A DNA stretch of 64,000 nt from Methanothrix sp. (lineage in GTDB: Archaea; Halobacteriota; Methanosarcinia; Methanotrichales; Methanotrichaceae). Of this stretch, positions 9,270 through 54,342 are shown in pieces. The position numbers and the translations under genes are program-made. The stretch is from the NCBI GenBank assembly GCA_963682135.1, contig OY821645.1:288001-352000 (forward strand), in the 5' to 3' direction. The number at the start of each line of letters is the position of its first letter. Positions within the stretch are counted from its first letter, which is position 1. The notes under the pieces were generated by a model. It was not told the DNA's origin, ran no database searches, and saw only the letters and a program-made list of their open reading frames with translations.

Positions 9270-9556
9270 ACGTTTCAAATGTTGTTCTCCGAGTATCAAA
9301 GCTATCTCAAAGATCTCAAATAAATAGCTTCCTGTAGTCCTGGATCAGTGGAGGAGTGATTACGAGAATGTCCATGTGCTGCCGCGGAAGACGCAAATAG
9401 GCAGATGATTAAAACCTAAGTTGAATACGTGGGACCTTTCTACCCGCAGCAAAGCGGTAAGATATTATTGGTAAATCCATTCGCAGTATTTAATATTAAA
9501 TTATGATCTGGTGTGCGGCCATTTGACTTTCTTTATTTCTAAGACATCTCCGGCAT

Positions 9557-16797: not shown

Positions 16798-17393
16798 GCG
16801 TAACGATATTTGTCGAAGGAGGCGGTGAGAGCAAAGAACTCAAATCGCGATGCCGTGAAGGTTTCAGCAAGCTCATTAAGAAAATGGGCTTTGTCGGACA
16901 TATGCCGAAAATCGTTGCTTGCGGAGGACGCAAAAATGCCTATGACATGTTCAATATAGCTATGACATCAGCTGGATATGATGAATATCCGATACTTTTG
17001 GTCGATAGCGAAGATCCGATTTCCTCGGACCGTCCTTGGGATCATCTTCATGTCCGCGACAGATGGGACCGTCCAGTTGGTGCAAACGATGATCAAGCTC
17101 AGATGATGGCGACTTGCATGGAGACGTGGATAATGGCGGATCATGAGGCCCTGCAAAAAGTATTCGGTTACTGCCTCCGGAGAGGATCTCTCATCCCGGC
17201 AAACAATTTAGAGGAAAGATCAAGGCAAGAACTGCTGGAGGCGCTCAAATCTGCTACGGATAATTGTGGAAGAAACAAAGGATACGATAAAGGAAAACGT
17301 TCATTCCAGATTTTGGCTGAACTGAATACCAGATCGCTTGAGAACTTGAGCTATTTCTGCCGGTTCAAAGAAGCACTTAGCAGGCATCTATAA
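16791..17393 (+). CDS. DUF4276-like (TOPRIM-type) partner protein
   Basis: IFVEGGG, LLVDSE, METWIMAD and YDKG motifs; start overlaps the ATPase stop. Confidence 0.75.
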   Translation: MVSVTIFVEGGGESKELKSRCREGFSKLIKKMGFVGHMPKIVACGGRKNAYDMFNIAMTSAGYDEYPILLVDSEDPISSDRPWDHLHVRDRWDRPVGANDDQAQMMATCMETWIMADHEALQKVFGYCLRRGSLIPANNLEERSRQELLEALKSATDNCGRNKGYDKGKRSFQILAELNTRSLENLSYFCRFKEALSRHL

Positions 17394-18935: not shown

Positions 18936-19466
18936 ATGTCAGATCCATTTATTGGCGAAATCAGATTGTTTGCAGGCAATTTTGCGCCACTTGACTGGGC
19001 ATTTTGCGACGGCCAGATTATGCAAATAGCTCAAAACACGGCTCTATACTCCATCCTGGGCACAACGTACGGAGGAGATGGAAAGACAACATTTGCTCTG
19101 CCCAATCTCATGGGAAGGATTCCCCTTAGTTTTGGGCAGGGGCCCGGACTCACTAAACATGAACTGGGCGAGACATTTGGAAGCGAGACCATCACACTGA
19201 GCGCAAATCAGATGTCAGCGCACAGTCATTCCGCCACCGTCAAAGCTGCAAACGCTGGCACCACCAATCAGCCGCAAAATAACCTCTTTGGCAAGATCGC
19301 CAGATCTAATATTTATAATACGCCTGATGCAGCTCTAGCAAACATGGCCGAAGGATCTCTTTCCCTGTCTAATTCCGGTGGATCTCAGCCTCATTCCAAT
19401 ATGCAGCCATACTTGACTTTAAGCTTCATCATCTGCGTTTATGGACTCTATCCTGTAAGGGATTAG
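18936..19466 (+). CDS. Phage tail-collar domain protein ('microcystin-dependent protein' type) 1
   Basis: PFIGEIRLFAGNFAP-WAFCDGQ...LYSILGTTYGGDGKTTFALPNLMGR; HSH; PHSNMQPY...GLYPVR. Confidence 0.92.
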   Translation: MSDPFIGEIRLFAGNFAPLDWAFCDGQIMQIAQNTALYSILGTTYGGDGKTTFALPNLMGRIPLSFGQGPGLTKHELGETFGSETITLSANQMSAHSHSATVKAANAGTTNQPQNNLFGKIARSNIYNTPDAALANMAEGSLSLSNSGGSQPHSNMQPYLTLSFIICVYGLYPVRD

Positions 19467-19541
19467 AATTAAGGTAAAGATGCAAAGGCAGATAAAAAAT
19501 TACAAGAAATATTTAATAGCTTAAATATCGATGGAGAAACT

Positions 19542-20072
19542 ATGTCAGAAGGATTTATTGGTGAGATAAGAATGTTTGCAGGCGGTTTTGCTCCACAAGG
19601 TTGGATGGAGTGCAACGGACAGGTCCTGACCATATCTCAATATAATGCGCTCTACAGTATTCTGGGTATAGCATATGGCGGCAATGGAACGACGACCTTT
19701 GCTCTTCCCAATCTCAATGGGCGGGTGCCGATGCATTTCGGCCAGGGACAGGGACAAAACCACATCATTGGCGAGTCGGCAGGATCGAGCAGTGTGGCAT
19801 TTTCAGTTGATCAAATGCCTACCCATTCGCATAACGCCAGACTGAAGGGAGCGAGCCAGGGCAACAGGGATTCGCCCGCTGGAAATGTACCAGGCGCTAC
19901 TGCAGGCATCAAGGCATACAGTCAGTCCTCCGGAGGCACTCTGGCCAATATGGATGGGCAGTCTGTGGTCATCGGCAATGCCGGTGCATCTGCGCCACAC
20001 GAGAATATGCAGCCATATATCGTTACGAATTTCATAATCTGCGTGTCAGGAATCTATCCGTCGCGATCATAA
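19542..20072 (+). CDS. Phage tail-collar domain protein 2
   Basis: FIGEIRMFAGGFAPQGWMECNGQ...TFALPNLNGR; HSH; PHENMQPY...GIYPSR. Confidence 0.92.
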   Translation: MSEGFIGEIRMFAGGFAPQGWMECNGQVLTISQYNALYSILGIAYGGNGTTTFALPNLNGRVPMHFGQGQGQNHIIGESAGSSSVAFSVDQMPTHSHNARLKGASQGNRDSPAGNVPGATAGIKAYSQSSGGTLANMDGQSVVIGNAGASAPHENMQPYIVTNFIICVSGIYPSRS

Positions 20073-20087
20073 ATTGGAGGAAATTAC

Positions 20088-20621
20088 ATGGACCCATACC
20101 TAGGCGAGATAAAGATATTCGCAGGAACATATGCACCCATGGGCTGGATGATGTGCCAGGGTCAGATTCTACCTATATCTGGAAATGACGCACTTTTTGC
20201 AGTAATAGGTGCCACCTACGGAGGAGACGGCGTAACCAACTTCGCTCTACCGGACTTTCGAGGAAGAGTGCCTCTTGGATACAGTACAAGCTATCCATTA
20301 GGGCAGAAAGACGGATATGAGACGGTAGCGCTCGCTGCAGATAATCTTCCGGTGCACGGCCACCCGGGTCAGGTAAAATGTACCAATAGGAGCGACTCTG
20401 AAACTCCAGGCGGAAATGTACCTAGTGCCGCAGTGATTTCCAGTACTGATGCTCCGAGGAACGAATATGTCCCGTCGGCAGGTCAGACGCTGGTAGATCT
20501 TGCCAGCAGTTGCGTTTCCATCGATCCGGCAGGCGGATCCGTTGCTCATCAGAATATTCAGCCTTCTATGGCATTGAACTTTATCATAGCAGTGGAAGGG
20601 ATCTTTCCAACCAGGGGATGA
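20088..20621 (+). CDS. Phage tail-collar domain protein 3
   Basis: YLGEIKIFAGTYAPMGWMMCQGQ...NFALPDFRGR; HGH; AHQNIQP...GIFPTR. Confidence 0.92.
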   Translation: MDPYLGEIKIFAGTYAPMGWMMCQGQILPISGNDALFAVIGATYGGDGVTNFALPDFRGRVPLGYSTSYPLGQKDGYETVALAADNLPVHGHPGQVKCTNRSDSETPGGNVPSAAVISSTDAPRNEYVPSAGQTLVDLASSCVSIDPAGGSVAHQNIQPSMALNFIIAVEGIFPTRG

Positions 20622-21164
20622 ATGAAAGGAAGAGAGTCGGGCAGTCCGGAAGGCTGCTGTTGGAGCTATTTAGGCTCGCGGCTGACACTGCGCCCTGCAT
20701 GCCGGGAGGATGATCTGTTTCTTTTTCATCTCTTTTGCAGCATTCGCGAACCTGACTTCGCCTTTCTTGGAGAATTGGAAAGGAAAAAAATAATGGAATT
20801 GCAATTTGCCGCCCAGCAGAGACACTATCAGGCGAATATGCCTGAGGCGGAGCACCTGATTGTCCTTCAGGATGGCGGGTCGATTGGCAGAATGATCCTC
20901 CTTCAGAGGAATGATGAGTTGCATCTGGCAGAGATCGCCCTTTTGCCTGAGCATAGGAACCATGGGATCGGCAGCATATTGATTAAAGAACTTATTAAGG
21001 CTGAGGCAGAACAGGGGCATGCGATCAGGCTGCAGGTCTACAATCATAGCGCAGCGGTGCGTTTCTATCAGCGATTGGGTTTTGTAAAGGCAAGAGATGA
21101 TGGTGCTTACTTGTTTCTGGAAAAGCTTCCCACAATCGGGGGCGATGGTGGGAACATATTTTAA
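20622..21164 (+). CDS. GNAT N-acetyltransferase
   Basis: IALLPEHRNHGIGS acetyl-CoA motif and AVRFYQRLGF; abuts the third tail-collar gene. Confidence 0.9.
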   Translation: MKGRESGSPEGCCWSYLGSRLTLRPACREDDLFLFHLFCSIREPDFAFLGELERKKIMELQFAAQQRHYQANMPEAEHLIVLQDGGSIGRMILLQRNDELHLAEIALLPEHRNHGIGSILIKELIKAEAEQGHAIRLQVYNHSAAVRFYQRLGFVKARDDGAYLFLEKLPTIGGDGGNIF

Positions 21165-21347
21165 AATAGCGATTAAATTGAAATTTAATTAATAATATTA
21201 TTATTAAGCGGCATGGTAGGGGGCCAAATTAATGAACTATATCGGTCATTACGGCAATGAATCCTTAATTGAGGGTCTTTCAGGGCAGATATTCCGTATT
21301 TTATTGAATGAATTGATTATTCCTTTAAAGGTTCAAGGAGACGCGCA

Positions 21348-24300
21348 ATGTCTCCAATAATGGCAAGATCGGCAGGAATCTGCCTTGCCGCACTTCTTAT
21401 TATGCTGGCGGCGACTGCTCCAGCCAGCGGCGCCTGCACTATGAGCGTTTCCAGGATCGGGACGGCTTCTGATGCCAACGGCGTTTTCGTCTTGAATGAT
21501 AAGGTGTATATCGCATCGACAAATGGACATTACATCATTATGCCTTTGAGCAGCCTGGTTGCAACATCGGATTTTAATATTGGAGGCTCACCGTATGACG
21601 TATTTGTATCGGGTAGTACTGCTTATCTGACCGATTTTTATAGCAGCAATGGAGTCAGGGTTGTCAATGCAGATACGGGGGCCCCTCTGGGAGAATGCAC
21701 CAACTGGCCTTCAGGTCTTTCTGCCATCGGCATTTATAACTCCGGCAGCTACGCCTATGTGGGAGCAACTGACTACACGAACGGCTACCTTGTTGTCTTG
21801 AGCCTGACAACTCCTAACTCACCGAGCGTTGTCAATACCATTTCAAGCGGCCCTATGGCTCAGGGCGGAGGCGGCCTATGTGTTACCGATGGCAAGATTT
21901 ACCTGGCAACCGATAATGGCGTGGATGAATTCACCCTCGGTAACCCAGCCAGTCCCTCCTACTCGGGAACCATTTCTACGCCCTATGGCGCATATGATGT
22001 TCACGTATTCGGCACCAATGCCTATGTTGTTATGGGAACAAATCCGCCTTCCGGCCAACCCAATGTAGTGGTCCTTGACCTCGCTAATTCAGGCACCCAG
22101 ACAGACTGTTATTATGATAGCACTCCGTCTTATGCCCTCCCGCCTTATGCCATCCAGTTCTACAATGGAAAAATATACATCGTTGATCCGAACGGACTCA
22201 AAGAATTGAGCGTAGGATCGGTGTCGGGATCGCTGACCGTTAACCTGGATGCCGTTCCAAATAATGCTCAGGACTTCACCTTCTCAGGCGACCTGGGAAG
22301 CTTCATTCTAGATGACGATAGCGATGACACCTATCCCAGCACCAAGACATTCAGCAGTCTGGCAGCAGGATACTATGCATTCCATCAGACGGTGCCATCA
22401 GGCTGGATCGTGAGCAGCATAACGGCATCAGATGCCAGCAAGGTCACGTACAGCAGCGATGGCAACTCGTGGCACAGCACCTTCACTTCCGGCGATACCT
22501 GGGCGAAGGCCTCAGTACAGGCCGGCGGCAGCACCCTGACGGTAAATTTCCAGGATACCAGAGTTTATTCCATCTCCGGGCATGTGATTTACGATCTGGA
22601 CGGCAACGGGGCTAAGAATAATTTTGAAGGCTACGTGCCCAACGGCTGGGTGGTGCAGCTTTGGAAAGATGGCACACAGACCTCTCAGACAACAACTCTG
22701 AGCGGCGCTTATTCATTCAGCAATCTTCCTGCCGGAAATTACGAGGTAAGGTCCATCTTGCAGACCGGCTGGGTGAATACCATCCCTGCAACCGGAATTC
22801 GCAGCTATTCGCCTCTCTCCTCAGATCAGACCAATCAGGACTTCGGAGTCCGCGGCAGCCAGTCCATTGCCGGCATGAAGTTTCACGACCTTGATGGCGA
22901 TAGAGCCAAGGATGCAGGCGAGCCGGGCCTGGCGAGCTGGACCATCGATCTGAAGAAAGACGGCAATAAGATAGCCAGCACTCAGACCGCTGCCGGAGGC
23001 GCATATTCTTTTGCCGGCCTGGCGCCGGGCAGCTACACCGTCGAGGAGACTCTGCAGTCCGGTTGGATACAGTCCTACCCCGCCTCGCCAGGCACACATG
23101 CAGTAACACTGGTCGCAGGAGTTGCCGGACCGACAGATAAGGACTTTGGCAATTACCAGACTACCGGATTTTCCGGCGTGAAATTCGAGGATCTCAATGG
23201 CAATGGTGCCAAGGATGCGGGCGAGCCGGGCATCTCTGGCTGGACCATTAAACTCAAGCAAGGCGCAACTGAGATCGCCAGCACCCAAACAGGCACAGTC
23301 GGAGCTTATTCCTTTACCGGAATTGCCCCTGGCAGCTACACTGTAGAAGAAGTGGCTCAGAGCGGCTGGACGCAGTCCTATCCTGCAACGCCCGGCACTT
23401 ATCCATTAACTCTAGTCTCGGGAGTTGCCGGGCCGACGGACATCAATTTCGGCAACTTGCGATCCACCGGATTTTCCGGCGTGAAATTCGAGGATCTCAA
23501 TGGCAATGGTGCCAAAGATGCGGGCGAGCCGGGTCTATCCGGCTGGACCATTAAACTCAAGCAAGGCGCAACTGAGATCGCCAGCACCCAAACAGGAACA
23601 GTCGGAGCTTATTCCTTTACCGGAATTGCCCCTGGCAGCTACACTGTAGAAGAAGTGGCTCAGAGCGGCTGGACGCAGTCCTATCCTGCAACGCCCGGCA
23701 CTTATCCATTAACTCTGGTCTCGGGAGTTGCCGGGCCGACGGACATCAATTTCGGCAACTGGCGGGCCACTGGATTTTCCGGCATGAAGTTTGAAGACCT
23801 CAACGGCAATGGAGCCAAGGATGCAGGCGAGCCGGGCATCTCAGGCTGGACCATCAAACTCAAGCAAGGGGCAACCGAGATCACCAGCATCCAAACCGGT
23901 ACAGGCGGAGCCTATTCCTTTACCGGAATTGCCCCCGGCAGCTACACTGTAGAAGAAGTGGCTCAGAGCGGCTGGACCCGATCCTATCCTGCCTCGCCGG
24001 GCACTCATTCATTAACTCTGGTCTCGGGAGTCGCCGGACCGACGAATATTGATTTCGGCAACTGGAAATCGACCGGTCTTTCTGGCGTGAAGTTTGAAGA
24101 TCTCAACGGCAATGGGGCCAAGGATACAGGAGAGCCCGGCATCTCAGGCTGGACAATTAAGCTCATGAGCGGCGCAACCGAGATTGCAAGCACCCAGACC
24201 GGCGCGGGCGGAGCCTATTCCTTCGCCGGCATTTCTCCCGGCAGCTATACCGTCAAGGAAGAAGTCGAGAGCGGTTGGACGCAGTCCTATCCTGCAACGC

Positions 24301-30300: not shown

Positions 30301-33300
30301 ACACCGTGCAAGAGGAAGCCCAGGCAGGCTGGACGCAGTCTTATCCTGCAACGCCCGGCACTTATCCATTAACTCTGGTGTCGGGAGTTGCCGGACCGAC
30401 GGACATTGATTTCGGCAACTGGAAATCGACCGGTTTTTCCGGTATGAAGTTCGAAGATCTCAACGGCAATGGGGCCAAGGACGCAGGCGAGCCGGGCCTC
30501 AAAGACTGGACCATCAAACTCATGAGCGGTGCAACCGAGATCTCCAGCACCCAGACAGCAGCCGATGGCAGTTATTCTTTCATCGGCATTACTCCCGGTA
30601 GCTACACCGTGCAAGAAGTAGCCCAGGCAGGCTGGACGCAGTCTTATCCCGCCTCGCCAGGCACGCATGCAATCACTCTGGTATCAGGAGTGGCCGGACC
30701 GACGGACCTCGATTTCGGCAACTGGAAATCGACCGGCTTTTCCGGCCTGAAGTTCGAAGATCTCAACGGCAATGGAGCCAAAGATGCGGGCGAGCCGGGT
30801 CTGGCTGACTGGACCATCAGGATTATGAAAGGTGCAACAGTGGTTGCCAGCGCCCTGACATTGGCCGACGGTGCTTATTCTTTCACCGGCATTGCGCCCG
30901 GAAGCTACATTGTGGAGGAAACTGCGCAAGCTGGCTGGACTCAGTCCTATCCCGCCTCGCCAGGCACCCAGACCGTTAACCTGGTCTCGGGAGCAGCCGG
31001 ACCGAATGACATTGATTTCGGAAACTGGAGAGCGACCGGTTTCTCGGGAATGAAGTTTAATGACCTGGATAGAAATGGTGCCAGGGATGCAGGCGAGCCC
31101 GGCCTCTCAGGCTGGACCATTAAGCTCATGAAAGGTGCAACCGAGACCTCCAGCACTCAAACAGCAGCCGATGGCAGCTATTCTTTCACCGACATTGCTC
31201 CTGGCAGCTACACCGTGCAAGAGGCAGCCCAATCCGGCTGGGTTCAGTCCTATCCAGCAACGCCCGGAATGCATCCAATCACCCTGGTATCGGGAATAGC
31301 TGGACCGACTGACATTGACTTCGGCAACCGTGGCTCTCTCGCTATCTCCGGCATGAAATTCCATGACAAGAATGCCAACGGCATACAGGATGATGGCGAG
31401 CCGGGTCTCTCAGGCTGGGATATCCAGCTTAAAGATAGCAGCGATAATCTCTTGCAGACCGCCACTACCAGCGCGGAGCCTGGCAAGGAGGGAGTCTATG
31501 AGTTTGCGGATCTGCCGCCGGGAACCTATCGGGTCTACGAGGCACCCAAAACCGGCTGGGTTCGGACTGCACCCGCGGAGGATCACTACGTAATAACCCT
31601 AACTGATTCATCCTCCCGGGGAAATCTCTTTGGCAACAATCAGCTTGCCATCTCCGGTATGAAGTTCCATGATAAGAACGCCAACGGCATAAAGGATGAT
31701 GGCGAGCCGGGTCTCTCCGGCTGGCAGATTCAGCTCAAAGACGGCAGCGACAACCTCCTGCAAACCGTCACCACCAGCTCAGATCCTGGCAAGGAAGGAG
31801 TCTACGAGTTCCTGGATTTGCAGCCCGGCACCTATCATGTCTACGAGATCCAGCAGGATGGCTGGATTCGGACTGCTCCAGATCAGGAGTACCATTCTGT
31901 GACCCTGTCCAACATGCCCTCCCGGGGAAATATGTTCGGAAACAATCTTGTGAATCTCTCCGGCACGAAGTTTGAGGACCTCAACGGCAACGGAGCGAAA
32001 GATAGCGGCGAGCCGGGTTTGGCTGGCTGGACCATCAGGCTCATAAAAGAGGGAACAGAGATCTCCAGCACATTTACGGACGCCGATGGCAGCTATTCGT
32101 TTGCACGCATAGCGCCCGGCAGCTACAGTGTGGTGGAGGATGTCAAGGACGGCTGGACCCAGTCTTATCCGCCCTCCGGAAAGCATACTTTTTCTCTGGC
32201 ATTTGGAGAATTCGGCCGGAGCGGCCTTAATTTTGGCAACTTCAGACCAACTGGTTTTGCCGGGACCAAGTTCGAAGATCTCAACGGCAATGGCGCTAAA
32301 GACAGCGGTGAGCCCGGACTCTCTGGCTGGACTATCAGGCTCATGAAAGAAGGCGCACTTGTCTCCAGCACAGTGACGGCTGCCGACGGATCATATTCTT
32401 TCACAGGCATTTCTCCCGGCAGCTACACTGTCGAAGAGTCAGCCCAGTCCGGCTGGACCCAGTCTTATCCCGCAACACCTGGAACCCATGAAATTACTCT
32501 GGTTTCCGGAGTTGCCGGACCAATTAATATCGATTTCGGCAACTACTGGTCAACCGGTTTGTCCGGCATGAAGTTTGATGACAAGAACGGCAACGGTGCC
32601 AAAGATAGCGGCGAGCCGGGCCTTGAGGGCTGGACAATTAAGCTCATGAGCGGTGCAACCGAGGTTGCCAGCACAGTGACTGCCGCCGATGGCAGCTATT
32701 CGTTTACTAACATCGTTCCCGGAGAATACACGGTTGAAGAAGTGCTTCAGTCTGGCTGGCTTCAGACCTATCCGACAGCACCTGGAACCCATGCAGTAAT
32801 TCTGGTCTCAGGAGTTGCCGGACGAACAGACCTCGATTTCGGGAACTGGAAGACCACTGGCCTCTCCGGCGTGAAATTTGAGGATCTCAATGCCAATGGC
32901 GCGAAAGATAGCGGAGAGCCGGGCATCGCAGGCTGGACCATCAAGCTCATGAATGGCGCAACCGAGGTTGCAGGCACAGTGACCGCCGCTGATGGCTCAT
33001 ATTCGTTTGCAGGAGTTGTGCCCGGCAGCTACACCGTGCAAGAGGATGCCCAGGCCGCCTGGACGCAGTCCTATCCTGCCTCACCAGGCACATATCCCGT
33101 AACTCTGGTCTCAGGTGTTGACGGTCCGAAAGATCTCGATTTCGGAAACTGGCGAAAAACCAGTCTTTCCGGCATGAAGTTTGATGATATCAACGGCAAC
33201 GGAGTCAAAGACAGCGGAGAGCCGGGCATCGCAGGCTGGACCATTGTGCTGAAAAAAGATGGCGCACAGGTCGATAGAAAAGTAACCAACTCCGATGGAG

Positions 33301-36300
33301 CCTACTCGTTTGCAGACATTGTTCCCGGCAGATACACCGTCGAAGAGGAAGCTCAGGATGGTTGGCTTCAGACCCGTCCTGCCTCGCCGGGCGTATATTC
33401 CTTGGATCTGCTCTCGGGAATAGCAGCATCGAATATCGATTTCGGCAACTACTGGTCAACCGGTTTGTCCGGCATGAAGTTCGAGGACAAGAACGGCAAC
33501 GGCGCAAAAGATAGCGGCGAGCCTGGCCTCTCCGGCTGGACCATCAGGCTCATGAAAGATGGAACCGAGGTTGCCAGCACAGTGACTGCCGCCGATGGCA
33601 GCTATTCGTTTACTAACATCGTTCCCGGAGAATACAAGGTTGAAGAAGTGCTTCAGTCTGGCTGGCTTCAGACCTATCCGGCAGCACCTGGAACCCATGC
33701 AGTAATTCTGGTCTCAGGAGTTGCTGGACCAACAAACCTCGATTTCGGCAACTGGAAGACCACTGGCCTCTCCGGCGTGAAATTTGAGGACCTCAACGTC
33801 AATGGCGCGAAAGATAGCGGAGAGCCGGGCATCGCAGGCTGGACCATCAAGCTCATGAATGGCGCAACCGAGGTTGCAGGCACAGTGACCGCCGCTGATG
33901 GCTCATATTCGTTTGCAGGAGTTGTGCCCGGCAGCTACACCGTGCAAGAGGATGCCCAGGCCGCCTGGACGCAGTCCTATCCTGCCTCACCAGGCACATA
34001 TCCCGTAACTCTGGTCTCAGGTGTTGACGGTCCGAAAGATCTCGATTTCGGAAACTGGCGAAAAACCAGTCTTTCCGGCATGAAGTTTGATGATATCAAC
34101 GGCAACGGAGTCAAAGACAGCGGCGAGCCTGGCCTCCCAGGCTGGACCATCAGGCTCATGAATGGCGCAACCTTGGTTGCCAGCACAAAAACTGCCGACG
34201 ATGGCAGTTACTCGTTTGCAGACATTGTTCCCGGCAGATACACCGTGGAGGAGGTTGCCCAGGATGGCTGGCTTCAGACCCGTCCTGCCTCGCCGGGCGT
34301 ATATTCCCTGGATCTGCTCTCGGGAATAGCTACAACGAACATCGATTTCGGCAACTTCAAAGCAGGCGGCTTTGCCGGAATAAAGTTCGAGGATAAGAAC
34401 GGCAACGGCCTCAGAGACAGCGGCGAGCCCGGCCTGCCCGACTGGACCATTGTTCTGATCAAGGACGGCGCTGAGGTTGCCAGCACAGTAACAGCCTCCG
34501 ATGGTTCCTATTACTTCGCCAACGTAGCTCCCGGCAGCTACACAGTCAAGGAGAAGCCTCAAGACGGATGGACAGAGACCTCTCCCGCCGGCGATACCTA
34601 CACTGCCGTCTCCAGCAGTGGCCAGGTTAAGATAACAAGAGCGGACCAATCAGAAGTTCCTGCGATTGAGGCCAACTTTGGCAACCGCAAGCTTGTGGAG
34701 GCTTTCAGGGTTGAGATAGTCGCCGATCACCAGACGGTCTTGCCAGGCGAGAATCTCGTCTTTACCATCACCATCAACCGTGTGGGAGATATCCTGCTCG
34801 ATAGCCTGAGCACGCAATACACTCTGCCAAAAGGCCTGAAGTACGTATCCGCAAACCCCATCCCGCAACAAATAATCGAGAATCCCGACGGCAGCACCAC
34901 CCTCATCTGGACTGATATTGCCTTCAGCTCACTTCTCGCAGCCCAACTGGCCAGTTCTCAGGACGTGTCTGCGAGCCCAACAGATGCTTCCGCGCTTTCG
35001 ACTATCATAACCGTGAACTCGGAGGTCCAACCGGACGCGCCGCCTATCCTGACCGGCGTAGTAGAGGTGGAGGGCAGCACAATCGAGGCAGAAGTGGACA
35101 AGGCCAAGGACACTGTCTCTGTGAGCGTGCCTTCTCAGCCTATCTACCTGAACAAGACCTCCGACCAGAAGGAGGTCTGGCCGGGAGGTACCATCGGATA
35201 CACCATCAATTACCAGAACCTGGTTAGCCTCCCATTAACCCAAGTTACGATCACCGAGCAGGCCTCTTCCGATCTCATCTTCCTATCCGCCTCGCCTGCT
35301 CCAGACCAGGGCACGGATAACGTCTGGAGCATTGGCGATCTGGCAGCTCACGGAAAGGGCACCATCAGCGTCCTCTTCCAGGTTAAGAACGCTTCTAACC
35401 TGAGCTTCTTGAGCCAGTCTTCCGTCTCGGGCAGCGGATTTGCGAGCACCTACCGCCGTCTCTCCACAGAGACGCAGAACCAGATCTTGAAAAATAGCGT
35501 CACCCTGACCTGCAAGGAGTTCTCGCCCGTCTCCACATCCTATTTCGTCAAGCTGCGGAATAGCGATGGAACGAGCCTTCTCAAGACGGAGCACGGCAGC
35601 GGCGAGTACAGCAGCGAAGAACTGGCCTCTCTGCAGATGCAGAACCGCTCGATAAGCAGCACGGGCTCGCTCAAGGCCGTCTACCGGCCCACCAGCTTCG
35701 CTCTGCCCGGAGGCAGGTCGATAAATTACAGCAGCGAGATCTCCTCACTGACCAGAAGCCGCAACCGGGCCACCCAGGCCTCGACCAGCAATGAGATCCG
35801 ATATTCTAAGAGCCTGGAGATGGACGAACGGCTCCTTATCGACAAGAACGAGACTTCTATCTCAGTCGAAGGCTCTCTACAGGGCCAAGCTCATCTGGGC
35901 GTCCTCAAAAAAGACGGCCAAGCGGTCAAGCCCGCCCCAATCTTCGAATCCTCTCAGGACTACACCGGAGCCTTCCGGTTCAACCAGAGCCTTGAGGACT
36001 ACGGCGGCAATGTTCGCCTGATTGGCAATGCCTCCGGCCAGGGCAAGGCAGCCAGCGACCAGCGCCTCAAGAAGAGCCAGAGAAGCTACGAGCACGGTAA
36101 CGGCAGCTACGAGAGCGAGCAGCAGGCCAGCACCGCAGAGAGCTACCTGGCCAAGGATCTCTCTGTCCGCTCAGATCCAGCGTACGGCTACGGCAAATGG
36201 CAGTCGGGCATCTGGTCGAAGAGCTCAGGCAAGAGCTACCTGGGCCAGCAGATCAGCGGCGCCGATTACATCAAAGAGGAGACAAAAGCATCAGGGTTGA

Positions 36301-37298
36301 ACGATCTGTCCAGCAACATCAGCTATCGGGGTCAGGGCAGCTTCCGGACGATCTCCGAGCCGGACAACAGAAGTGCTCTGGACCTGGACGAGGAGTACGT
36401 GGGCGAGTATTCCATTCAGCGCAAGGTCCGCCTGGGCGGAGTCTCTCGCTTCGACCGGCCTCACCTCACCCTGAACAAGACCGGCCGAATGGAGGATGGA
36501 AGGGCAGCCGCGGATTACACCATCGCCATCCTCAATGACGGCAACACCGCTCTGGGCCCGGTCTACGTCTGGGACATCTTCCCGGCGGGTACCGATTACC
36601 TCGGCTCGTCGCTCAAGCCCACCCGGCTGCAGCCGGGCTACGCGAATTGGTCGCTGCTCTACCTGGGCATAGGCCAGTCTGTGACCATCAACCTGCGGCT
36701 GAATGTAACCGACTCCCAGGATGAGCTGGTCAACCTGGTCTACGCCTCAGGTGGACATAATGACGAGTGGGTGACTGCCGGAAATATGAGCGTCATCCAG
36801 TTCGGCTGGCTGGGATGCTGCCAGCCAGATCTGCTCCTGGAAAAGCAAGCACGAATTGACGCCGCGGACAACCGGCTCATATGGTATCGCATCCTTTTGC
36901 AGAACCGGGCTAATGTGAGCCTTGTAGCAGAGGTCAGAGACAGCCTGCCCACGGGACTAAGGATCCTGAATACATCTGCCGAGCCCCAGGTAGAGGGACA
37001 GGATCTGGTCTGGGTGACGACAGCCATACCTGCCGGCGAGAGCCGGTTCATTGAATACCGGGCCCAGGCCGTGCAGAATGGAAAGTTCGTGAACACCGCT
37101 CGGGTGGAGGCTCATGCTCTGGACGGATCAGGCGGGGCATCGACAGAGGCCAGCGCCACGGTAACGGTAGGCGAGGCGACATCTTACGCAGAGGATGGCT
37201 GGAAGCCTCCGGAGTGGGGGCTGGACAGATCTGAGGTGATCTGCGACGATGTGATTGCCGGGAATGGAGGAAGCTGTAGCTGCCCTCTGAGCGAATAA
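21348..37298 (+). CDS. Giant (5316 aa) secreted surface protein: LVIVD-like beta-propeller, about 40 SdrD-B/CnaB-like repeats, C-terminal DUF11-like domains
   Basis: Sec-type signal peptide; YDVFVSGSTAYL-type blades; 101-aa repeats with DLNGNGAKDAGE loops; LNKT...YTI.Y.N DUF11-like domains. Confidence 0.9.
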   Translation: MSPIMARSAGICLAALLIMLAATAPASGACTMSVSRIGTASDANGVFVLNDKVYIASTNGHYIIMPLSSLVATSDFNIGGSPYDVFVSGSTAYLTDFYSSNGVRVVNADTGAPLGECTNWPSGLSAIGIYNSGSYAYVGATDYTNGYLVVLSLTTPNSPSVVNTISSGPMAQGGGGLCVTDGKIYLATDNGVDEFTLGNPASPSYSGTISTPYGAYDVHVFGTNAYVVMGTNPPSGQPNVVVLDLANSGTQTDCYYDSTPSYALPPYAIQFYNGKIYIVDPNGLKELSVGSVSGSLTVNLDAVPNNAQDFTFSGDLGSFILDDDSDDTYPSTKTFSSLAAGYYAFHQTVPSGWIVSSITASDASKVTYSSDGNSWHSTFTSGDTWAKASVQAGGSTLTVNFQDTRVYSISGHVIYDLDGNGAKNNFEGYVPNGWVVQLWKDGTQTSQTTTLSGAYSFSNLPAGNYEVRSILQTGWVNTIPATGIRSYSPLSSDQTNQDFGVRGSQSIAGMKFHDLDGDRAKDAGEPGLASWTIDLKKDGNKIASTQTAAGGAYSFAGLAPGSYTVEETLQSGWIQSYPASPGTHAVTLVAGVAGPTDKDFGNYQTTGFSGVKFEDLNGNGAKDAGEPGISGWTIKLKQGATEIASTQTGTVGAYSFTGIAPGSYTVEEVAQSGWTQSYPATPGTYPLTLVSGVAGPTDINFGNLRSTGFSGVKFEDLNGNGAKDAGEPGLSGWTIKLKQGATEIASTQTGTVGAYSFTGIAPGSYTVEEVAQSGWTQSYPATPGTYPLTLVSGVAGPTDINFGNWRATGFSGMKFEDLNGNGAKDAGEPGISGWTIKLKQGATEITSIQTGTGGAYSFTGIAPGSYTVEEVAQSGWTRSYPASPGTHSLTLVSGVAGPTNIDFGNWKSTGLSGVKFEDLNGNGAKDTGEPGISGWTIKLMSGATEIASTQTGAGGAYSFAGISPGSYTVKEEVESGWTQSYPATPGTYPLNLVSGVAGPTNIDFGNWKSTGLSGVKFEDLNGNGAKDTGEPGISGWTIKLMSGATEISSTQTGADGSYSFAGIAPGSYTVTEAMQPGWTQSYPATPGTYPLTLISGVAGPANINFGNWRTTGLSGMKFEDLNGNGAKDAGEPGISGWTIKLMSDATEIASTQTGADGSYSFTGIAPGSYTIEEVAQGGWTQSYPATPGTYPLTLISGVAGPTNINFGNWRTTVFSGMKFEDLNGNGAKDAGEPGLKDWTIKLMNGATEISSTQTGADGAYSFTDIAPGSYTVEEAMQAGWARTYPASPGTHTINLVSGVAGPTNINFGNARATGFSGMKFEDLNGNGAKDLGEPGLEGWTIKLMSGATEIASTQTDADGAYSFTDISPGSYTVKEEVKSGWTQSYPATPGTYPLTLISGVAGPTNIDFGNWKSTGLSGVKFEDLNGNGAKDTGEPGISGWTIKLMSGATEIAGTQTGADGAYSFTDIAPGSYTVEETAQAGWTQSYPATPGTYPLTLVSGVAGPNNIDFGNWRTTGLSGMKFGDLNGNGAKDAGEPGLKDWTIKLMSGATEIASTQTGADGAYSFTGIAPGSYTVEEVAQSGWTQSYPAAPGTYPVTLSSGLLAANIDFGNWKATGFTGLKFEDLNGNGAKDAGEPGLEGWTIKLMSGATEISSTQTDADGAYSFTDIAPGSYTVEEAMQAGWAQTCPASPGTHTINLVSGVAGPTNINFGNARGTGFSGMKFEDLNGNGAKDAGETGLEGWTIKLMSGATEIASTQTDADGSYSFIGITPGSYTVQEEAQAGWTQSYPATPGTYPLNLVSGVAGPTNIDFGNWKATGLSGVKFEDLNGNGAKDTGEPGLTGWTIKLMSGATEIASTQTNVDGAYSFTGIAPGSYTVTEAMQPGWTQSYPATPGTYPLTLVSGVAGPTNINFGNWRTTGLSGMKFEDLNGNGAKDAGEPGISGWTIKLMSDATEIASTQTGADGSYSFTGIAPGSYTVEEVAQSGWTQSYPATPGTYPLTLISGVAGPTDINFGNWRTTGFSGMKFEDLNGNGARDAGEPGLKDWTIKLMNGATEISSIQTGADGAYSFTDIAPGSYTVEEAMQAGWARTYPASPGTHTINLVSGVAGPTNINFGNARATGFSGMKFEDLNGNGAKDAGEPGLEGWTIKLMSGATEISSTQTDADGAYSFTDISPGSYTVKEEVKSGWTQSYPATPGTYPLNLVSGVAGPTNIDFGNWKATGLSGVKFEDLNGNGAKDAGETGISGWTIKLKQGTTEISSTQTGTGGAYSFTGIAPGSYTVEEVAQIGWTQSYPASPGTHSFTLVSGVAGPTNIDFGNWRTTGLSGMKFEDLNGNGAKDAGEPGLKDWTIKLMSGATEIASTQTGADGSYSFTGIAPGSYTIEEVAQGGWTQSYPAAPGTHSLALASGVAGPTDINFGNWRTTGLSGMKFEDLNGNGARDAGEPGLKDWTIKLMSGATEISSTQTDADGAYSFTDIAPGSYTVVEAMQAGWAQTYPVSPGTHSINLVSGVAGPTNINFGNDRATGFSGMKFEDLNGNGAKDAGEPGLEGWTIKLMSGATEIASTQTDADGAYSFTDIAPGSYTVKEEVKSGWTQSYPATSGTYPLTLVSGVAGPTNIDFGNWKSTGLSGVKFEDLNGNGAKDVGEPSLEGWTIKLMSGATEISSTQTDADGAYSFIDIAPGSYTVKEEVKSGWTQSYPASPGTHAITLVSGLPVTNIDFGNWKSTGFSGVKFEDNNGNGAKDAGEPGLKDWTIKLMKGTTVVSVIPTDADGAYSFTDIAPGSYTVEEAAQAGWTQSYPASPGMQTVNLVSGVIGPKNVDFGNWRSTGFSGMKFEDLNGNGAKDSGEPGLFGWAIVLKKGETVVSVTQTDPDGVYSFADIAPGSYTVEEAMQSGWTQTNPIWPGTHSVTLVSGIAGPNNIDFGNARTTGFSGLKFEDLNGNGAKDAGEPGLKDWTIKLMSGATEISSTQTAADGSYSFIGITPGSYTVQEEAQAGWTQSYPATPGTYPLTLVSGVAGPTDIDFGNWKSTGFSGMKFEDLNGNGAKDAGEPGLKDWTIKLMSGATEISSTQTAADGSYSFIGITPGSYTVQEVAQAGWTQSYPASPGTHAITLVSGVAGPTDLDFGNWKSTGFSGLKFEDLNGNGAKDAGEPGLADWTIRIMKGATVVASALTLADGAYSFTGIAPGSYIVEETAQAGWTQSYPASPGTQTVNLVSGAAGPNDIDFGNWRATGFSGMKFNDLDRNGARDAGEPGLSGWTIKLMKGATETSSTQTAADGSYSFTDIAPGSYTVQEAAQSGWVQSYPATPGMHPITLVSGIAGPTDIDFGNRGSLAISGMKFHDKNANGIQDDGEPGLSGWDIQLKDSSDNLLQTATTSAEPGKEGVYEFADLPPGTYRVYEAPKTGWVRTAPAEDHYVITLTDSSSRGNLFGNNQLAISGMKFHDKNANGIKDDGEPGLSGWQIQLKDGSDNLLQTVTTSSDPGKEGVYEFLDLQPGTYHVYEIQQDGWIRTAPDQEYHSVTLSNMPSRGNMFGNNLVNLSGTKFEDLNGNGAKDSGEPGLAGWTIRLIKEGTEISSTFTDADGSYSFARIAPGSYSVVEDVKDGWTQSYPPSGKHTFSLAFGEFGRSGLNFGNFRPTGFAGTKFEDLNGNGAKDSGEPGLSGWTIRLMKEGALVSSTVTAADGSYSFTGISPGSYTVEESAQSGWTQSYPATPGTHEITLVSGVAGPINIDFGNYWSTGLSGMKFDDKNGNGAKDSGEPGLEGWTIKLMSGATEVASTVTAADGSYSFTNIVPGEYTVEEVLQSGWLQTYPTAPGTHAVILVSGVAGRTDLDFGNWKTTGLSGVKFEDLNANGAKDSGEPGIAGWTIKLMNGATEVAGTVTAADGSYSFAGVVPGSYTVQEDAQAAWTQSYPASPGTYPVTLVSGVDGPKDLDFGNWRKTSLSGMKFDDINGNGVKDSGEPGIAGWTIVLKKDGAQVDRKVTNSDGAYSFADIVPGRYTVEEEAQDGWLQTRPASPGVYSLDLLSGIAASNIDFGNYWSTGLSGMKFEDKNGNGAKDSGEPGLSGWTIRLMKDGTEVASTVTAADGSYSFTNIVPGEYKVEEVLQSGWLQTYPAAPGTHAVILVSGVAGPTNLDFGNWKTTGLSGVKFEDLNVNGAKDSGEPGIAGWTIKLMNGATEVAGTVTAADGSYSFAGVVPGSYTVQEDAQAAWTQSYPASPGTYPVTLVSGVDGPKDLDFGNWRKTSLSGMKFDDINGNGVKDSGEPGLPGWTIRLMNGATLVASTKTADDGSYSFADIVPGRYTVEEVAQDGWLQTRPASPGVYSLDLLSGIATTNIDFGNFKAGGFAGIKFEDKNGNGLRDSGEPGLPDWTIVLIKDGAEVASTVTASDGSYYFANVAPGSYTVKEKPQDGWTETSPAGDTYTAVSSSGQVKITRADQSEVPAIEANFGNRKLVEAFRVEIVADHQTVLPGENLVFTITINRVGDILLDSLSTQYTLPKGLKYVSANPIPQQIIENPDGSTTLIWTDIAFSSLLAAQLASSQDVSASPTDASALSTIITVNSEVQPDAPPILTGVVEVEGSTIEAEVDKAKDTVSVSVPSQPIYLNKTSDQKEVWPGGTIGYTINYQNLVSLPLTQVTITEQASSDLIFLSASPAPDQGTDNVWSIGDLAAHGKGTISVLFQVKNASNLSFLSQSSVSGSGFASTYRRLSTETQNQILKNSVTLTCKEFSPVSTSYFVKLRNSDGTSLLKTEHGSGEYSSEELASLQMQNRSISSTGSLKAVYRPTSFALPGGRSINYSSEISSLTRSRNRATQASTSNEIRYSKSLEMDERLLIDKNETSISVEGSLQGQAHLGVLKKDGQAVKPAPIFESSQDYTGAFRFNQSLEDYGGNVRLIGNASGQGKAASDQRLKKSQRSYEHGNGSYESEQQASTAESYLAKDLSVRSDPAYGYGKWQSGIWSKSSGKSYLGQQISGADYIKEETKASGLNDLSSNISYRGQGSFRTISEPDNRSALDLDEEYVGEYSIQRKVRLGGVSRFDRPHLTLNKTGRMEDGRAAADYTIAILNDGNTALGPVYVWDIFPAGTDYLGSSLKPTRLQPGYANWSLLYLGIGQSVTINLRLNVTDSQDELVNLVYASGGHNDEWVTAGNMSVIQFGWLGCCQPDLLLEKQARIDAADNRLIWYRILLQNRANVSLVAEVRDSLPTGLRILNTSAEPQVEGQDLVWVTTAIPAGESRFIEYRAQAVQNGKFVNTARVEAHALDGSGGASTEASATVTVGEATSYAEDGWKPPEWGLDRSEVICDDVIAGNGGSCSCPLSE
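22560..34690 (+). repeat. About 40 tandem copies of a ~303-bp coding repeat
   Basis: SGMKFEDLNGNG...DFGN units counted by eye at a period of 300-309 bp. Confidence 0.9.
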
Positions 37299-53493: not shown

Positions 53494-54342
53494 TTATACT
53501 CTGCCCTCTTCCTCATTTTGCATGATCTTCGCGCCCCTGGCAAAGGCTGCATCCGCCTCAGCATCTTTGCCCAGAGCCATGAGAGCCAGGCCCCTGCTGT
53601 TCCAGGCCCTGGCGTTCTCGGCATCGATCTCGATGGCCCTATCAATATCATCGATAGCTTCCGCGTACCGGCTCAGGCGCCGCAGGGCCTCGCCCCGACC
53701 GTACCAGGAATCGGCATTTAGCGGATCGACCTCCAGCGCCCGGTCGAAATGCGCTACTGCCTCATCGTATCTGTGCAGTTTGGCAAGAGCCGCGCCTTTG
53801 TTGTTCCAGAACTCGCTTCTTTGCGGCTGCAGGGCGATGGACCGGTCAAAGCAATCCAGAGCCGCCTCATAGTCGCCCATATTTCCCAGAGATGCGCCTC
53901 GGTTGCTCCACACACGGGCACCATTGGGATTCAGCTCAAGAGCTTGATCATAATAATCGACTGCTTCCTGATATCTTCCCAGCCGGTTCAGAATTACGCC
54001 TTTGTTGTACCAGGCTCTCACGTAGCCGGGAACGGCCTTGATGATGGCGTCAAAATAGGCAATGGCCTGCGCGTATCTCTTCAGTTTGTAGAAGACAACG
54101 CCTTTATTATTCTGGGCATCGGTATATTGAGGGTCGATATTTAGGGCAGCATCAAAGGATACAATAGCCTCCTCATGCCGGCCCAGTCGGCATAAGGCCA
54201 GACCTCTGCGGTTACAAAGAGTTGCGTCTTTCGTGTATTTTTCTATGGCCCTATCATAAAATGAGAGGGCTTCATCAAATTTGCCGTTCTGGTATAGTTC
54301 ATCAGCTTTTTCTGCCAGGGAAATAGCATCCATGATAGTCAC
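53494..54342 (-). CDS. TPR-repeat protein
   Basis: About 8 canonical TPRs (AWYNKG...). Confidence 0.9.
   Translation of the reverse strand: MTIMDAISLAEKADELYQNGKFDEALSFYDRAIEKYTKDATLCNRRGLALCRLGRHEEAIVSFDAALNIDPQYTDAQNNKGVVFYKLKRYAQAIAYFDAIIKAVPGYVRAWYNKGVILNRLGRYQEAVDYYDQALELNPNGARVWSNRGASLGNMGDYEAALDCFDRSIALQPQRSEFWNNKGAALAKLHRYDEAVAHFDRALEVDPLNADSWYGRGEALRRLSRYAEAIDDIDRAIEIDAENARAWNSRGLALMALGKDAEADAAFARGAKIMQNEEEGRV

Follow-up and report, generated by a model that had tools for sequence, protein, structure and literature searches.

A five-gene unit in a methanogen chromosome

Within the window (the whole 64,000-nt stretch of DNA that was analyzed), five intact open reading frames (ORFs) lie in the same orientation between positions 18936 and 37298. 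They encode three paralogous collar proteins (the triad), a GNAT acetyltransferase, and a very large protein, referred to here as the giant.

18936..19466, + strand: collar protein 1 (ORF, 176 aa), a shaft-less protein resembling a phage fiber tip, clade-B type
19542..20072, + strand: collar protein 2 (ORF, 176 aa), sister of collar 1 and apparent archaeal-lineage duplicate (B')
20088..20621, + strand: collar protein 3 (ORF, 177 aa), clade-C type
20622..21164, + strand: cassette-specific GNAT acetyltransferase (180 aa; Pfam Acetyltransf_7/1/10)
21348..37298, + strand: giant exported surface protein (ORF, 5316 aa)
21348..21437, + strand: putative signal peptide of the giant, residues 1 to 30, basic and then hydrophobic, with the conserved Cys30 at its end
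21438..22247, + strand: predicted six-bladed beta-propeller of the giant, residues ~31 to 300 (AlphaFold model), a module-specific domain
22578..34697, + strand: ~40 tandem SdrD_B-type Ig-like repeats with a 101-aa period (Pfam SdrD_B, SpaA, CarboxypepD_reg)
34698..37295, + strand: C-terminal region of the giant with DUF11 repeats and DUF7507 (Pfam), lacking a hydrophobic C-terminal anchor

An ORF check of the window placed all five genes, co-oriented and uninterrupted, exactly where an earlier sequence-only reading of this DNA had put them. The GNAT gene starts on the first base past the stop codon of collar 3, and the giant gene lies 183 bp downstream of the GNAT gene. The intergenic regions of the unit are AT-rich, and no export gene occurs inside the five-gene module. 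The three collar genes are the only ones in their genome.

The locus sits in a 3.04-Mb cellular chromosome with archaeal host markers (mcrA, and a DHH-CID RecJ-like gene that adjoins the locus). Pfam searches of 40 further ORFs of the window turned up none of the families expected of capsids, sheaths, baseplates, terminases, or integrases, in agreement with the sequence-only reading, and because the genes on both flanks are host genes, the locus is not a prophage, as had also been proposed. A HEC-01 defense candidate lies just upstream of the triad and is missing at the same place in genome G005. A defense role for the collar protein and the GNAT was rejected, neither giving a PADLOC match.

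The collar proteins resemble shaft-less phage fiber tips

The Pfam Collar family (PF07484) matched all three proteins from residue 6/7 to 62/63, with E values of 1.5e-27, 7.5e-28, and 1.7e-26 for collars 1, 2, and 3 and scores of 95.8, 96.7, and 92.3 bits against a gathering cutoff of 24. Gp10_C matched two of the proteins below threshold (25.1 bits in collar 1 versus a cutoff of 27). The other two collars are 52% and 42% identical to collar 1. Three-way comparison showed conserved N- and C-terminal parts around a variable middle, as first described from the sequence, and the C-terminal motif noted there, H.N(M/I)QP...FII..., was recovered in the alignment with H153, N155, Q157, P158, F164-I165-I166, G170, P173, and R175 invariant. 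An HxH pair (H96/H98, H95/H97, and H90/H92) is shared by the three window collars and is invariant in all three 27-row alignments. In T4 gp12 and gp37, the HxH that follows the collar is the metal site on the trimer axis.

The proteins start four residues ahead of the collar motif and have no shaft. No N-terminal hydrophobic segment or signal peptide was found in any of the three, consistent with the earlier reading. Of 208 collar proteins, 173 have S, A, G, or T at position 2, and 179 have the same fixed N-terminal length. Identity to bacterial orthologues is 17 to 19% over residues 99 to 147 (the head) and 58 to 69% over residues 1 to 65. In three closer archaeal orthologues, the head was not more variable than the body; the idea of rapid head diversification within the genus was therefore not borne out. 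The only sequence relatives of the collars in the PDB are phage tail fibers (8kec, E of 1.4e-6; 9cuy), and minor tail proteins of cultured phages matched over their full length at no more than 38% identity. A collar-domain protein has been reported among the exoproteins of a marine Roseobacter (PMC4949626).

The acetyltransferase and the giant

The GNAT ORF matched Acetyltransf_7 (E of 6e-15), which bears out its earlier assignment, and the RxxGxG acetyl-CoA loop is kept in a 30-row alignment with shared motifs. Its predicted structure (pLDDT 90) matched generic GNATs in the PDB by Foldseek, including Ta0374, PaiA, RimI, and SpeG, and every NCBIfam match fell far under its cutoff; naming a substrate from families or folds was thus abandoned. 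The target is probably the triad itself, possibly at its fixed Ser/Ala N termini. The dN/dS ratio was ~0.2 for the GNAT and 0.07 to 0.20 for the collars (0.11 to 0.14 for collar 1 alone), and purifying selection acts on both.

The giant begins with a signal-peptide-like N terminus (basic, then hydrophobic). G28 and C30 are invariant among five orthologues, and we infer that the Cys30 region may have a lipobox-like role. An AlphaFold model of residues 1 to 410 contains ~25 strands between residues 33 and 299 (pLDDT, ~90) and therefore about six propeller blades. The top Foldseek match in the PDB was 1l0q, a YVTN propeller plus PKD domain from an archaeal surface-layer protein (E of 9e-11), with TM-scores of only 0.44 to 0.46. 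Behind this domain, 38 strict SdrD_B-type motifs are spaced 100 to 102 aa apart (period, 101 aa), followed by DUF11 (three stretches) and DUF7507; inspection of the C-terminal sequence revealed no hydrophobic anchor. The earlier description of a Sec-exported repeat protein with an N-terminal beta-propeller thus holds, the propeller as a prediction. The N-terminal part has a dN/dS ratio of 0.30 to 0.35, and the genome has only 17 ORFs of at least 1,500 aa.

Related cassettes in bacteria

At least 576 relatives of the collars were found in a genome-contig database, and the locus counts given here refer to the best 80 loci. Of these, 78 are bacterial records spread over 12 named phyla, one belongs to Bathyarchaeia, and one is unplaced. 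The bacterial collars are ~50% identical to those of the window. At least three collar ORFs occur in 70 of the 80 loci and a single collar gene in only 8. A homologous GNAT (phmmer with the window GNAT as the query) is present in 59/80, in 53/80 no more than 1.5 kb from the collar run, and 43/80 loci have a DUF6916-like ORF. An ORF of at least 1,000 aa lies within 2 kb in 42 loci, 4 more loci have one that is cut by a contig end, and 34 are without one. Such an ORF is the immediate neighbor in 36/80 loci versus 24/640 (3.75%) of the remaining genes of those loci. The sequence-only reading had mentioned triplets with a GNAT beside large secreted proteins in bacteria and had called for a neighborhood survey; the survey found that arrangement and linked the triplet to large ORFs.

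The large bacterial neighbors bear lineage-specific anchors (SLH or Por_Secre_tail). When the large ORFs of the 80 loci were searched iteratively by hidden Markov model (HMM) for a shared docking domain, nothing emerged except repeated Ig-like modules in 22 proteins, and phmmer searches with five parts of the window giant found no match in these loci. No domain common to the bacterial giants and the window giant was thus found, and with it no common docking site. Judged from its domains, the window giant is built from archaeal-type parts and has no sequence similarity to the giants beside the bacterial cassettes. No sheath, tube, baseplate, capsid, or terminase family is conserved across the 80 loci. 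IMG/VR contigs with six and nine tandem collar copies, multiples of three, were also found. DUF6916 (PF21880) had no match in the genome studied here, in a search whose control genomes were likewise silent, and an HMM built from 16 cassette DUF6916 proteins had no match in six frames of the window or of four archaeal loci. A literature search found no published description of a cellular collar-triad cassette.

On sequence grounds, the triad and GNAT are not an archaeal invention and represent a copy of a cassette spread over at least 12 bacterial phyla. The earlier suggestion of an apparatus that an archaeon had domesticated is therefore not supported: the cassette ranges widely across bacteria, and horizontal acquisition is most likely.

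Origin of the archaeal copy and its inheritance within the genus

Each of 57 bacterial triplets holds exactly one member of three ancient clades, A, B, and C, mostly in the order CAB (30 triplets) or ACB (25 triplets), with the B type nearly always last. The window triad has a different composition. Collar 1 scored best with the clade-B HMM (249.8 bits) and forms one clade with its orthologues in four other genomes of the genus (support, 99). Collar 2 gave ambiguous clade HMM scores, and collars 1 and 2 of five archaeal genomes form one clade that excludes bacterial sequences (support, 93). Collar 3 falls in clade C in the tree and scored best with the clade-C HMM (188.2 bits). The triad is thus B, B', and C and lacks a clade-A member, and one ancient paralogue appears to have been replaced by a duplicate of another. 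Because collar 2 is sister to collar 1, a strict argument for three fixed subunits is weakened.

Among 401 sampled genomes of the phylum, the full-length triad was found only in G000. The GC3 of the triad and GNAT is 0.49 (15th percentile), versus 0.63 for the giant (65th percentile of the genome). An ancestor within the methanogen genus probably acquired the triad and GNAT from bacteria. The nearest neighbors differ between paralogues and the GNAT identities are flat (25 to 36%), so that no donor lineage could be named.

Of 59 genomes of the genus, 6 carry collar genes. Strong matches to residues 1 to 410 of the giant (E of 1e-42 or better) were found in the same six genomes only, always adjacent to the collars (6/6 collar-bearing versus 0/53 collar-less genomes), and the linkage of triad and giant that the sequence-only reading had assumed is therefore seen in every collar-bearing genome of the genus. 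Since the collar-bearing genomes are kin, these are not six independent events. The propeller falls to 33% identity between genomes, yet adjacency is kept. In G052 and G057, the five genes retain their order and no flanking ORF matches any ORF of the window, so that the unit occurs in at least two genomic contexts within the genus; giant orthologues of at least 3,032 to 3,071 aa adjoin the triad in G052 and G053. In five genomes, every ORF of the unit is intact, and dS relative to G004 is similar to that of GluRS. The five-gene unit is co-inherited within the genus. In G005, a complete genome without the triad, synteny extends from GluRS to a MarR-like gene and then breaks, and the downstream side is not comparable; clean insertion boundaries could not be drawn.

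A predicted mixed trimer

A 1:1:1 complex model of the three collars reached an ipSAE of 0.65, compared with 0.36 for the best control, with ~690 contacts; such a model does not separate a mixed trimer from three homotrimers. As a benchmark, 58 of 80 solved complexes and 2 of 110 mismatched pairs attained this mark of 0.65. Partner pLDDT was at least 87, and at least 98% of the contacts agreed between runs. When chain 1 was replaced in a control, chains 2 and 3 still gave 0.36. The pass may reflect likeness to solved trimers, and solved collar fibers (T4 gp12 and gp37) are homotrimers. The modeled 1:1:1 complex gives in silico support to the single heterotrimer of three chains that had been suggested from the sequence, as do the 57 bacterial triplets of one member each from clades A, B, and C.

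Comparison with known systems

The bacterial collar-triad cassette (three MdpB/COG4675-like proteins, GNAT, DUF6916, and a giant) shares with the window three tandem collars of ~175 aa, the same GNAT subfamily, a giant exported neighbor, and the absence of phage genes. The window differs in its methanogenic archaeal host, the lack of a detected DUF6916, its B, B', C composition, its gene order, and a giant of archaeal-type domains unlike those of bacteria. With T4-type tips (the gp12 short fiber, the gp10 C-terminal domain, and the gp37 tip) and with 8kec and 9cuy, the window collars have in common the collar, HxH, head, and conserved C-terminal strand. T4-type phage fiber proteins are homotrimers with long N-terminal shafts attached to the baseplate; the window collars, in contrast, have no shaft. 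Like the archaeal surface-layer protein 1l0q, the giant has a propeller followed by an Ig-like domain at its N terminus; unlike it, the giant appears to have six blades by modeled strand count and carries the added SdrD_B repeats and DUF11.

MrpB/MdpB of Microcystis is a cellular PF07484 protein. To our knowledge, decades have passed without a function being assigned to collar-domain proteins outside phages (MdpB/COG4675 and RhiB). The RhiB protein, encoded in the Rhizobium rhiABC operon, is likewise described as a cellular, non-phage PF07484 protein (PMC13133039). Compared by description rather than sequence, RhiB and MrpB/MdpB differ from the window in being single genes in other operon contexts, and no triad, GNAT, or giant neighbor is described for either. 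A closer parallel is virophage DSLV2 (Aquatic Virophage 1 lineage). It is reported to have three consecutive PF07484 genes for proteins of ~180 aa that adjoin capsid genes, and its tripartite tail proteins reportedly copurify 1:1:1 as a heterotrimer of ~58 kDa, form a 16-nm fiber with a collar and receptor-binding head, and bind cyanobacterial lipopolysaccharide; the trimer is proposed to sit on the pseudo-hexameric capsomer (PMC12724248). The words "acetyltransferase" and "bacterial genomes" are absent from that article. The likeness, taken from the published description, lies in the three PF07484 genes; a capsid gene is absent here.

Interpretation

On balance, we lean toward a heterotrimeric collar knob with a dedicated GNAT that works with a giant surface protein, as an archaeal variant of a widespread cellular cassette. 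Three shaft-less paralogues of phage fiber tips would most likely form one mixed trimer of ~57 kDa, with each chain divided into collar base, HxH neck, and variable head. This trimer would serve as a ligand-binding knob, the dedicated GNAT would be made alongside it, and the knob and the adjacent Sec-exported giant would act together in surface recognition or adhesion. The triad and GNAT would have come from bacteria, been coupled in the genus ancestor to an archaeal-type giant, and been inherited as a five-gene unit from then on. That the collars have no signal peptide and the module has no export gene is a point against pairing with an exported giant.

A more specific proposal, which we regard as rather improbable in its full form, is that the triad and GNAT are a portable plug-in head for unrelated giants, attached in the methanogen to one of archaeal type. 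The pseudo-threefold trimer would dock on the pseudo-sixfold propeller of the giant, as the virophage trimer would on its capsomer, after signal-peptide-free export, and N-terminal acetylation by the GNAT would license assembly or docking.

The main competitor of a single mixed trimer is a set of three separate homotrimers with three specificities, still functionally tied to the giant, to which we assign a minor share of belief. Solved collar-domain fibers are homotrimeric (T4 gp12 and gp37), the PDB relatives are phage fibers, collar 2 apparently arose from collar 1 by duplication in the archaeal lineage as expected of interchangeable units, chains 2 and 3 still scored 0.36 in the control with chain 1 replaced, and IMG/VR contigs carry six and nine copies. 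However, those arrays come in multiples of three, the bacterial triplets hold one member of each clade with B nearly always last, lone collar genes are rare (8/80), and the virophage triplet is reported to copurify 1:1:1 (PMC12724248). A different view would keep the triad and GNAT inside the cell, as a lectin- or chaperone-like factor that helps to build, modify, or quality-check the giant before export rather than a surface knob. The missing signal peptides and export gene, the cytoplasmic type of the GNAT, and a linkage to exported giants that is conserved though the giants are not homologous would all fit. We nevertheless judge this unlikely: the fold is known from extracellular receptor-binding tips only, a strongly diverged head is easier to reconcile with ligands outside the cell than with a conserved client inside it, and a collar-domain protein is reported from a Roseobacter exoproteome (PMC4949626).

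About as doubtful is the notion that adjacency to the giant means nothing and that an independent unit has landed in variable surface-gene regions. The giant neighbors are heterogeneous (only Ig-like repeat modules are common, in 22 proteins), the window giant resembles none of them, the region is variable (the upstream HEC-01 candidate is absent from the same place in G005), and 34/80 loci lack a large neighbor within 2 kb. Against this stand the enrichment of large immediate neighbors (36/80 loci versus 3.75% of other genes), the 6/6 versus 0/53 co-occurrence in the genus, in which triad and giant stay adjacent even where the genomic context differs, and the persistence of adjacency while the propeller has diverged to 33% identity. 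Tail fibers supplied in trans to an extracellular contractile injection system (eCIS) seem very improbable. The genome does have an eCIS locus, outside the window and 187 kb from the triad (sheath, gp19-like tube, Pvc16_N, AAA ATPase, eCIS_core, spike, gp25, and a gp6-like protein), and a sheath gene is present in four of the six triad genomes. Across the genus, however, 27 of 59 genomes carry sheath genes, including 23 of 53 without the triad, and none was detected in two triad genomes that are 77 to 78% complete. In G052, 64 kb separate the two loci; the eCIS locus already encodes large distal proteins (two DUF6519 proteins), its proteins matched nothing in the 80 related loci by phmmer (a search of limited sensitivity), and the collars have no N-terminal shaft or attachment domain. 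The claim that the locus itself is neither prophage nor eCIS stands for the window, in which no sheath or baseplate family was found; an eCIS elsewhere in the genome, which the sequence-only reading had named among its refuting conditions, does formally exist, but it does not co-vary with the triad. A decaying prophage tail-fiber remnant, which would suit a domain family that is mostly phage-borne, is already contradicted and has a negligible chance of being right: the ORFs are intact in five genomes, the collars are under constraint (dN/dS, 0.07 to 0.20), the window has no phage gene, and the cassette spans 12 bacterial phyla at ~50% identity.

New here are the methanogen host with five-gene inheritance, a giant without sequence similarity to the bacterial ones, and an altered cassette makeup. 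The archaeal copy is a natural experiment in which the triad and GNAT were carried into another domain of life. DUF6916 is missing and a paralogue apparently replaced, yet three collar genes are retained and the module is again tied to a giant. The core of the function would accordingly be the triad, the GNAT, and some giant surface protein, and DUF6916 may be expendable or needed only with bacterial envelopes. For methanogen biology, the unit is a candidate device for surface recognition, carried by a minority of the species in the genus. It also supplies reagents for studies of assembly, acetylation, and docking, namely, four small soluble proteins and one propeller domain.

A five-gene module in a methanogen

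The ORF listing bore out the exact coordinates at which a sequence-only reading had placed five ORFs:

18936-19466 (+), collar 1, 176 aa, full N-terminal Pfam Collar domain
19542-20072 (+), collar 2, 176 aa, full N-terminal Pfam Collar domain
20088-20621 (+), collar 3, 177 aa, full N-terminal Pfam Collar domain
20622-21164, GNAT (Pfam), first base directly after the collar 3 stop codon
21348-37298, giant protein, 5316 aa, signal-peptide-like N-terminus

The complete 3.04-Mb chromosome carries mcrA, and the host is thus a methanogenic archaeon. The three Collar matches had E values of 1.7e-26 to 7.5e-28, and the T4 gp10 C-terminal domain gave sub-threshold Pfam matches in two of the three proteins. 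Collars 2 and 3 are 52% and 42% identical to collar 1. Alignment of the three showed a variable middle between conserved stretches of ∼100 residues at the start and 30 at the end. Both the C-terminal motif noticed earlier and an HxH pair at residues 96/98 are invariant across the paralogues. No N-terminal hydrophobic segment was found in any of the three, and a search of the complete chromosome revealed no collar genes beyond the triad. In the PDB, only tail fibres were related to them in sequence.

The N-terminal domain of the giant protein was modeled with ∼25 strands (pLDDT near 90) followed by an Ig-like domain; by strand count, it is probably a six-bladed propeller. Among PDB entries, an archaeal S-layer protein (its YVTN propeller and PKD) was the best match of this model. 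The chain continues with SdrD_B-type repeats, about 40 in number at a 101-aa period, and then with a DUF11 and DUF7507 region (Pfam). Two residues do not vary in five orthologues: Gly28 and Cys30 (window 21435-21437), the latter immediately following the signal peptide. Cys30 could be a lipobox-like N-terminal anchor, in which case the propeller would sit beside the membrane rather than at the distal tip. A giant paralogue that lacks a triad, a 2578-aa ORF outside the window (G000:C1:1392442-1400175, minus strand) with no collar genes nearby, matches the module's propeller at its N-terminus (residues 12-228; 36% identity).

The cassette in bacteria and other relatives

The sequence-only reading had mentioned triplets with a GNAT beside large secreted proteins in bacteria. 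Scanning one genome per species yielded 576 relatives. The best 80 loci represent 78 bacterial records (12 named phyla), a Bathyarchaeia MAG, and a record without placement, at ∼47 to 55% identity to collar 1 throughout. The neighbourhood survey showed that the cassette is real and widespread: among these best 80 loci, 70 had at least three collar ORFs and only 8 had a single one, a homologue of the window GNAT was present in 59 (within 1.5 kb in 53), and a small DUF6916-like ORF was present in 43. FastTree analysis of 224 collar proteins separated the bacterial triplets into three old clades (A, B, and C), and 57 triplets had exactly one member per clade, usually in the order C-A-B (30) or A-C-B (25). 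No paper on the cellular cassette turned up in the literature searched, and this locus represents a new form of it in an archaeon. The nearest published case found is a virophage in which three consecutive PF07484 proteins are reported to copurify as a heterotrimer that binds cyanobacterial LPS (PMC12724248).

Cultured phages carry full-length relatives at no more than 38% identity, annotated as minor tail proteins. Two IMG/VR contigs filed as viral have nine (L110, 1-5456) and six (L111, 3315-6531) tandem collar genes of ∼175 aa each, arranged as three and two triplets in a row; a third contig (L113), in which a triplet is joined by a GNAT and a 1563-aa ORF, resembles the cellular cassette. 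A second archaeal lineage, represented by the Bathyarchaeia MAG contig (L060, 476-6157), has a bacterial-style cassette in which a 1172-aa Big_2/cadherin protein is accompanied by a GNAT and three collar ORFs; this may be a mis-binned bacterial contig.

Linkage of the triad to giant proteins

An ORF of at least 1,000 aa lay within 2 kb of the collar run in 42 of the best 80 loci, and in 4 more a large ORF was cut by the contig end. By a crude gene call over the same 80 loci, such an ORF was the immediate neighbour in 36/80 loci, whereas 24/640 (3.75%) of the other genes there reached that length. In the neighbours sampled, Ig/cadherin repeats were combined with anchors specific to the lineage, namely SLH in a Firmicute and a T9SS sorting domain in a Flavobacterium. 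The large neighbours were heterogeneous, with an Ig-like module set common to only 22, and across the 80 loci none had sequence likeness to the window's giant protein.

The archaeal genus is an independent test of the triad-giant link. Collar genes are present in 6 of 59 genus genomes (the window's own, G000, and G004, G010, G052, G053, and G057), and residues 1-410 of the giant protein had matches at E values of 1e-42 or better in exactly these six, each adjoining the collars; the six are kin, so that this co-occurrence does not amount to six independent events. The upstream flank of the window is common to G004 and G053. In G052 and G057 the five-gene order is kept while the flanking ORFs match no window ORF, indicating that the unit is retained in at least two genomic contexts, and this extends to loci whose propeller is down to 33% identity. 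With only 17 ORFs of at least 1,500 aa in the window's own genome, chance adjacency is unlikely.

Origin of the archaeal variant

In an evenly sampled set of 401 genomes of the phylum, full-length relatives occurred only in the window's genome. Four genomes of a sister family in the same class (G284, G039, G032, and G033; L125-L128) had single longer collar-domain ORFs of 272 to 467 aa, which match the triad proteins over residues 2-98 only and differ from them in architecture. GC3 of the triad and GNAT is 0.49 (15th percentile of the genome's long ORFs) versus a typical 0.63 for the giant gene. Given this rarity, the GC3 contrast, and the bacterial breadth, we favour a bacterial source for the triad and GNAT, with coupling to a giant protein of archaeal-type domains; with nearest neighbours that differ by paralogue, no single donor is indicated.

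Each archaeal collar position is monophyletic (support of 99, 85, and 100), suggesting a single origin in the genus. Collars 1 and 2 form one clade without any bacterial sequence (support of 93), and clade HMMs assigned collar 1 to B and collar 3 to C and left collar 2 ambiguous; the archaeal triad is thus read as B, B', and C. It seems that the A paralogue was replaced by a B duplicate (B') with the three-gene count kept, a pattern that gene conversion could mimic. DUF6916 is absent from the window, from four archaeal loci and, within the power of that search, from the window's own genome. The module genes are under purifying selection (dN/dS of 0.07 to 0.20 for the collars, about 0.2 for the GNAT, and 0.30 to 0.35 for the giant N-terminus), and their dS relative to G004 resembles the GluRS value, in keeping with vertical inheritance after the two species diverged. 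The value of the archaeal copy is comparative, as it shows which cassette parts travel together across domains.

Assembly, proposed function, and the eCIS alternative

A 1:1:1 model of the three collar chains, built with custom alignments, gave an ipSAE of 0.65 versus 0.36 for the best control (partner pLDDT of at least 87; runs agreeing in at least 98% of contacts), a mark reached by 58/80 solved complexes and 2/110 mismatched pairs in calibration of the tool; such a model does not distinguish a mixed trimer from homotrimers, and, given those alignments and the trimeric form of solved collar fibres, its score may in part reflect likeness to known trimers. Three observations favour a mixed trimer: bacterial triplets with one member per clade, the scarcity of singletons, and the precedent set by the virophage. 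The head (residues 99-147) is 17 to 19% identical to bacterial orthologues versus 58 to 69% for the collar, which is what a ligand-binding surface would show; among three closer archaeal orthologues, extra variability of the head relative to the body was not seen. The acetyl-CoA loop is retained in the window's GNAT by alignment, and its fold matches in a structure search were uninformative. Of 208 collar proteins, 179 have an N-terminus of fixed length and 173 carry Ser, Ala, Gly, or Thr at position 2; putative N-terminal acetylation of the collar proteins by the GNAT is therefore a reasonable guess.

The alternative that the triad belongs to a contractile injection system encoded elsewhere had been named in the sequence-only reading as grounds for abandoning its proposal. 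An apparently complete eCIS locus does lie outside the window, 187 kb from the triad (G000:C1:496300-528200; L109 and L132). It encodes a sheath, a gp19-like tube, a T4 baseplate-like protein, Pvc16_N, an AAA ATPase, two eCIS_core proteins, a Phage_base_V spike, gp25, a gp6-like protein, and two DUF6519 proteins (1,178 and 1,370 aa). However, sheath genes, present in 27 of the 59 genus genomes, do not track the triad, occurring in 23/53 genomes without it and in 4/6 with it (the two others being 77 to 78% complete). Moreover, a search of limited sensitivity found no match to these eCIS proteins in the best 80 related loci. We regard membership of the triad in this eCIS as very improbable.

We lean modestly toward a heterotrimeric binding knob that is modified by the GNAT and works with the giant surface protein. 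The three chains would co-assemble into one mixed trimer serving as the knob, the GNAT would modify it, and the knob would act together with the giant protein in recognition or adhesion. Docking of the trimer on the propeller is possible, the six-blade count of the model being suggestive. The main difficulty for the binding-knob reading is the export of signal-less collar proteins. Overall, the observation first made from the sequence is confirmed and its interpretation partly supported.

Surroundings of the module

No phage-type genes were found in the window; by Pfam, 40 other ORFs gave only cellular functions, among them GluRS, a UbiA prenyltransferase, a MarR-like regulator, RecJ/DHH-CID, TPR proteins, UvrA, and ScpB. 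A candidate two-gene defence system lies a short way upstream of the module (15592-17393, plus strand), in which an AAA_21 ATPase matches PADLOC HEC-01A (E value of 1.7e-180) and a DUF4276 protein matches HEC-01B (2.5e-68); the pair is missing at the syntenic place in G005, a complete genome without the triad. A low-GC block (5975-9299, minus strand; 33 to 39% versus about 50% for the genome) holds two ORFs (647 and 463 aa) that lack both Pfam and PADLOC matches. A 483-aa ORF (52011-53462, plus strand) with caspase-like Peptidase_C14 and C13 matches lies upstream of a TPR-protein ORF (53494-54342).
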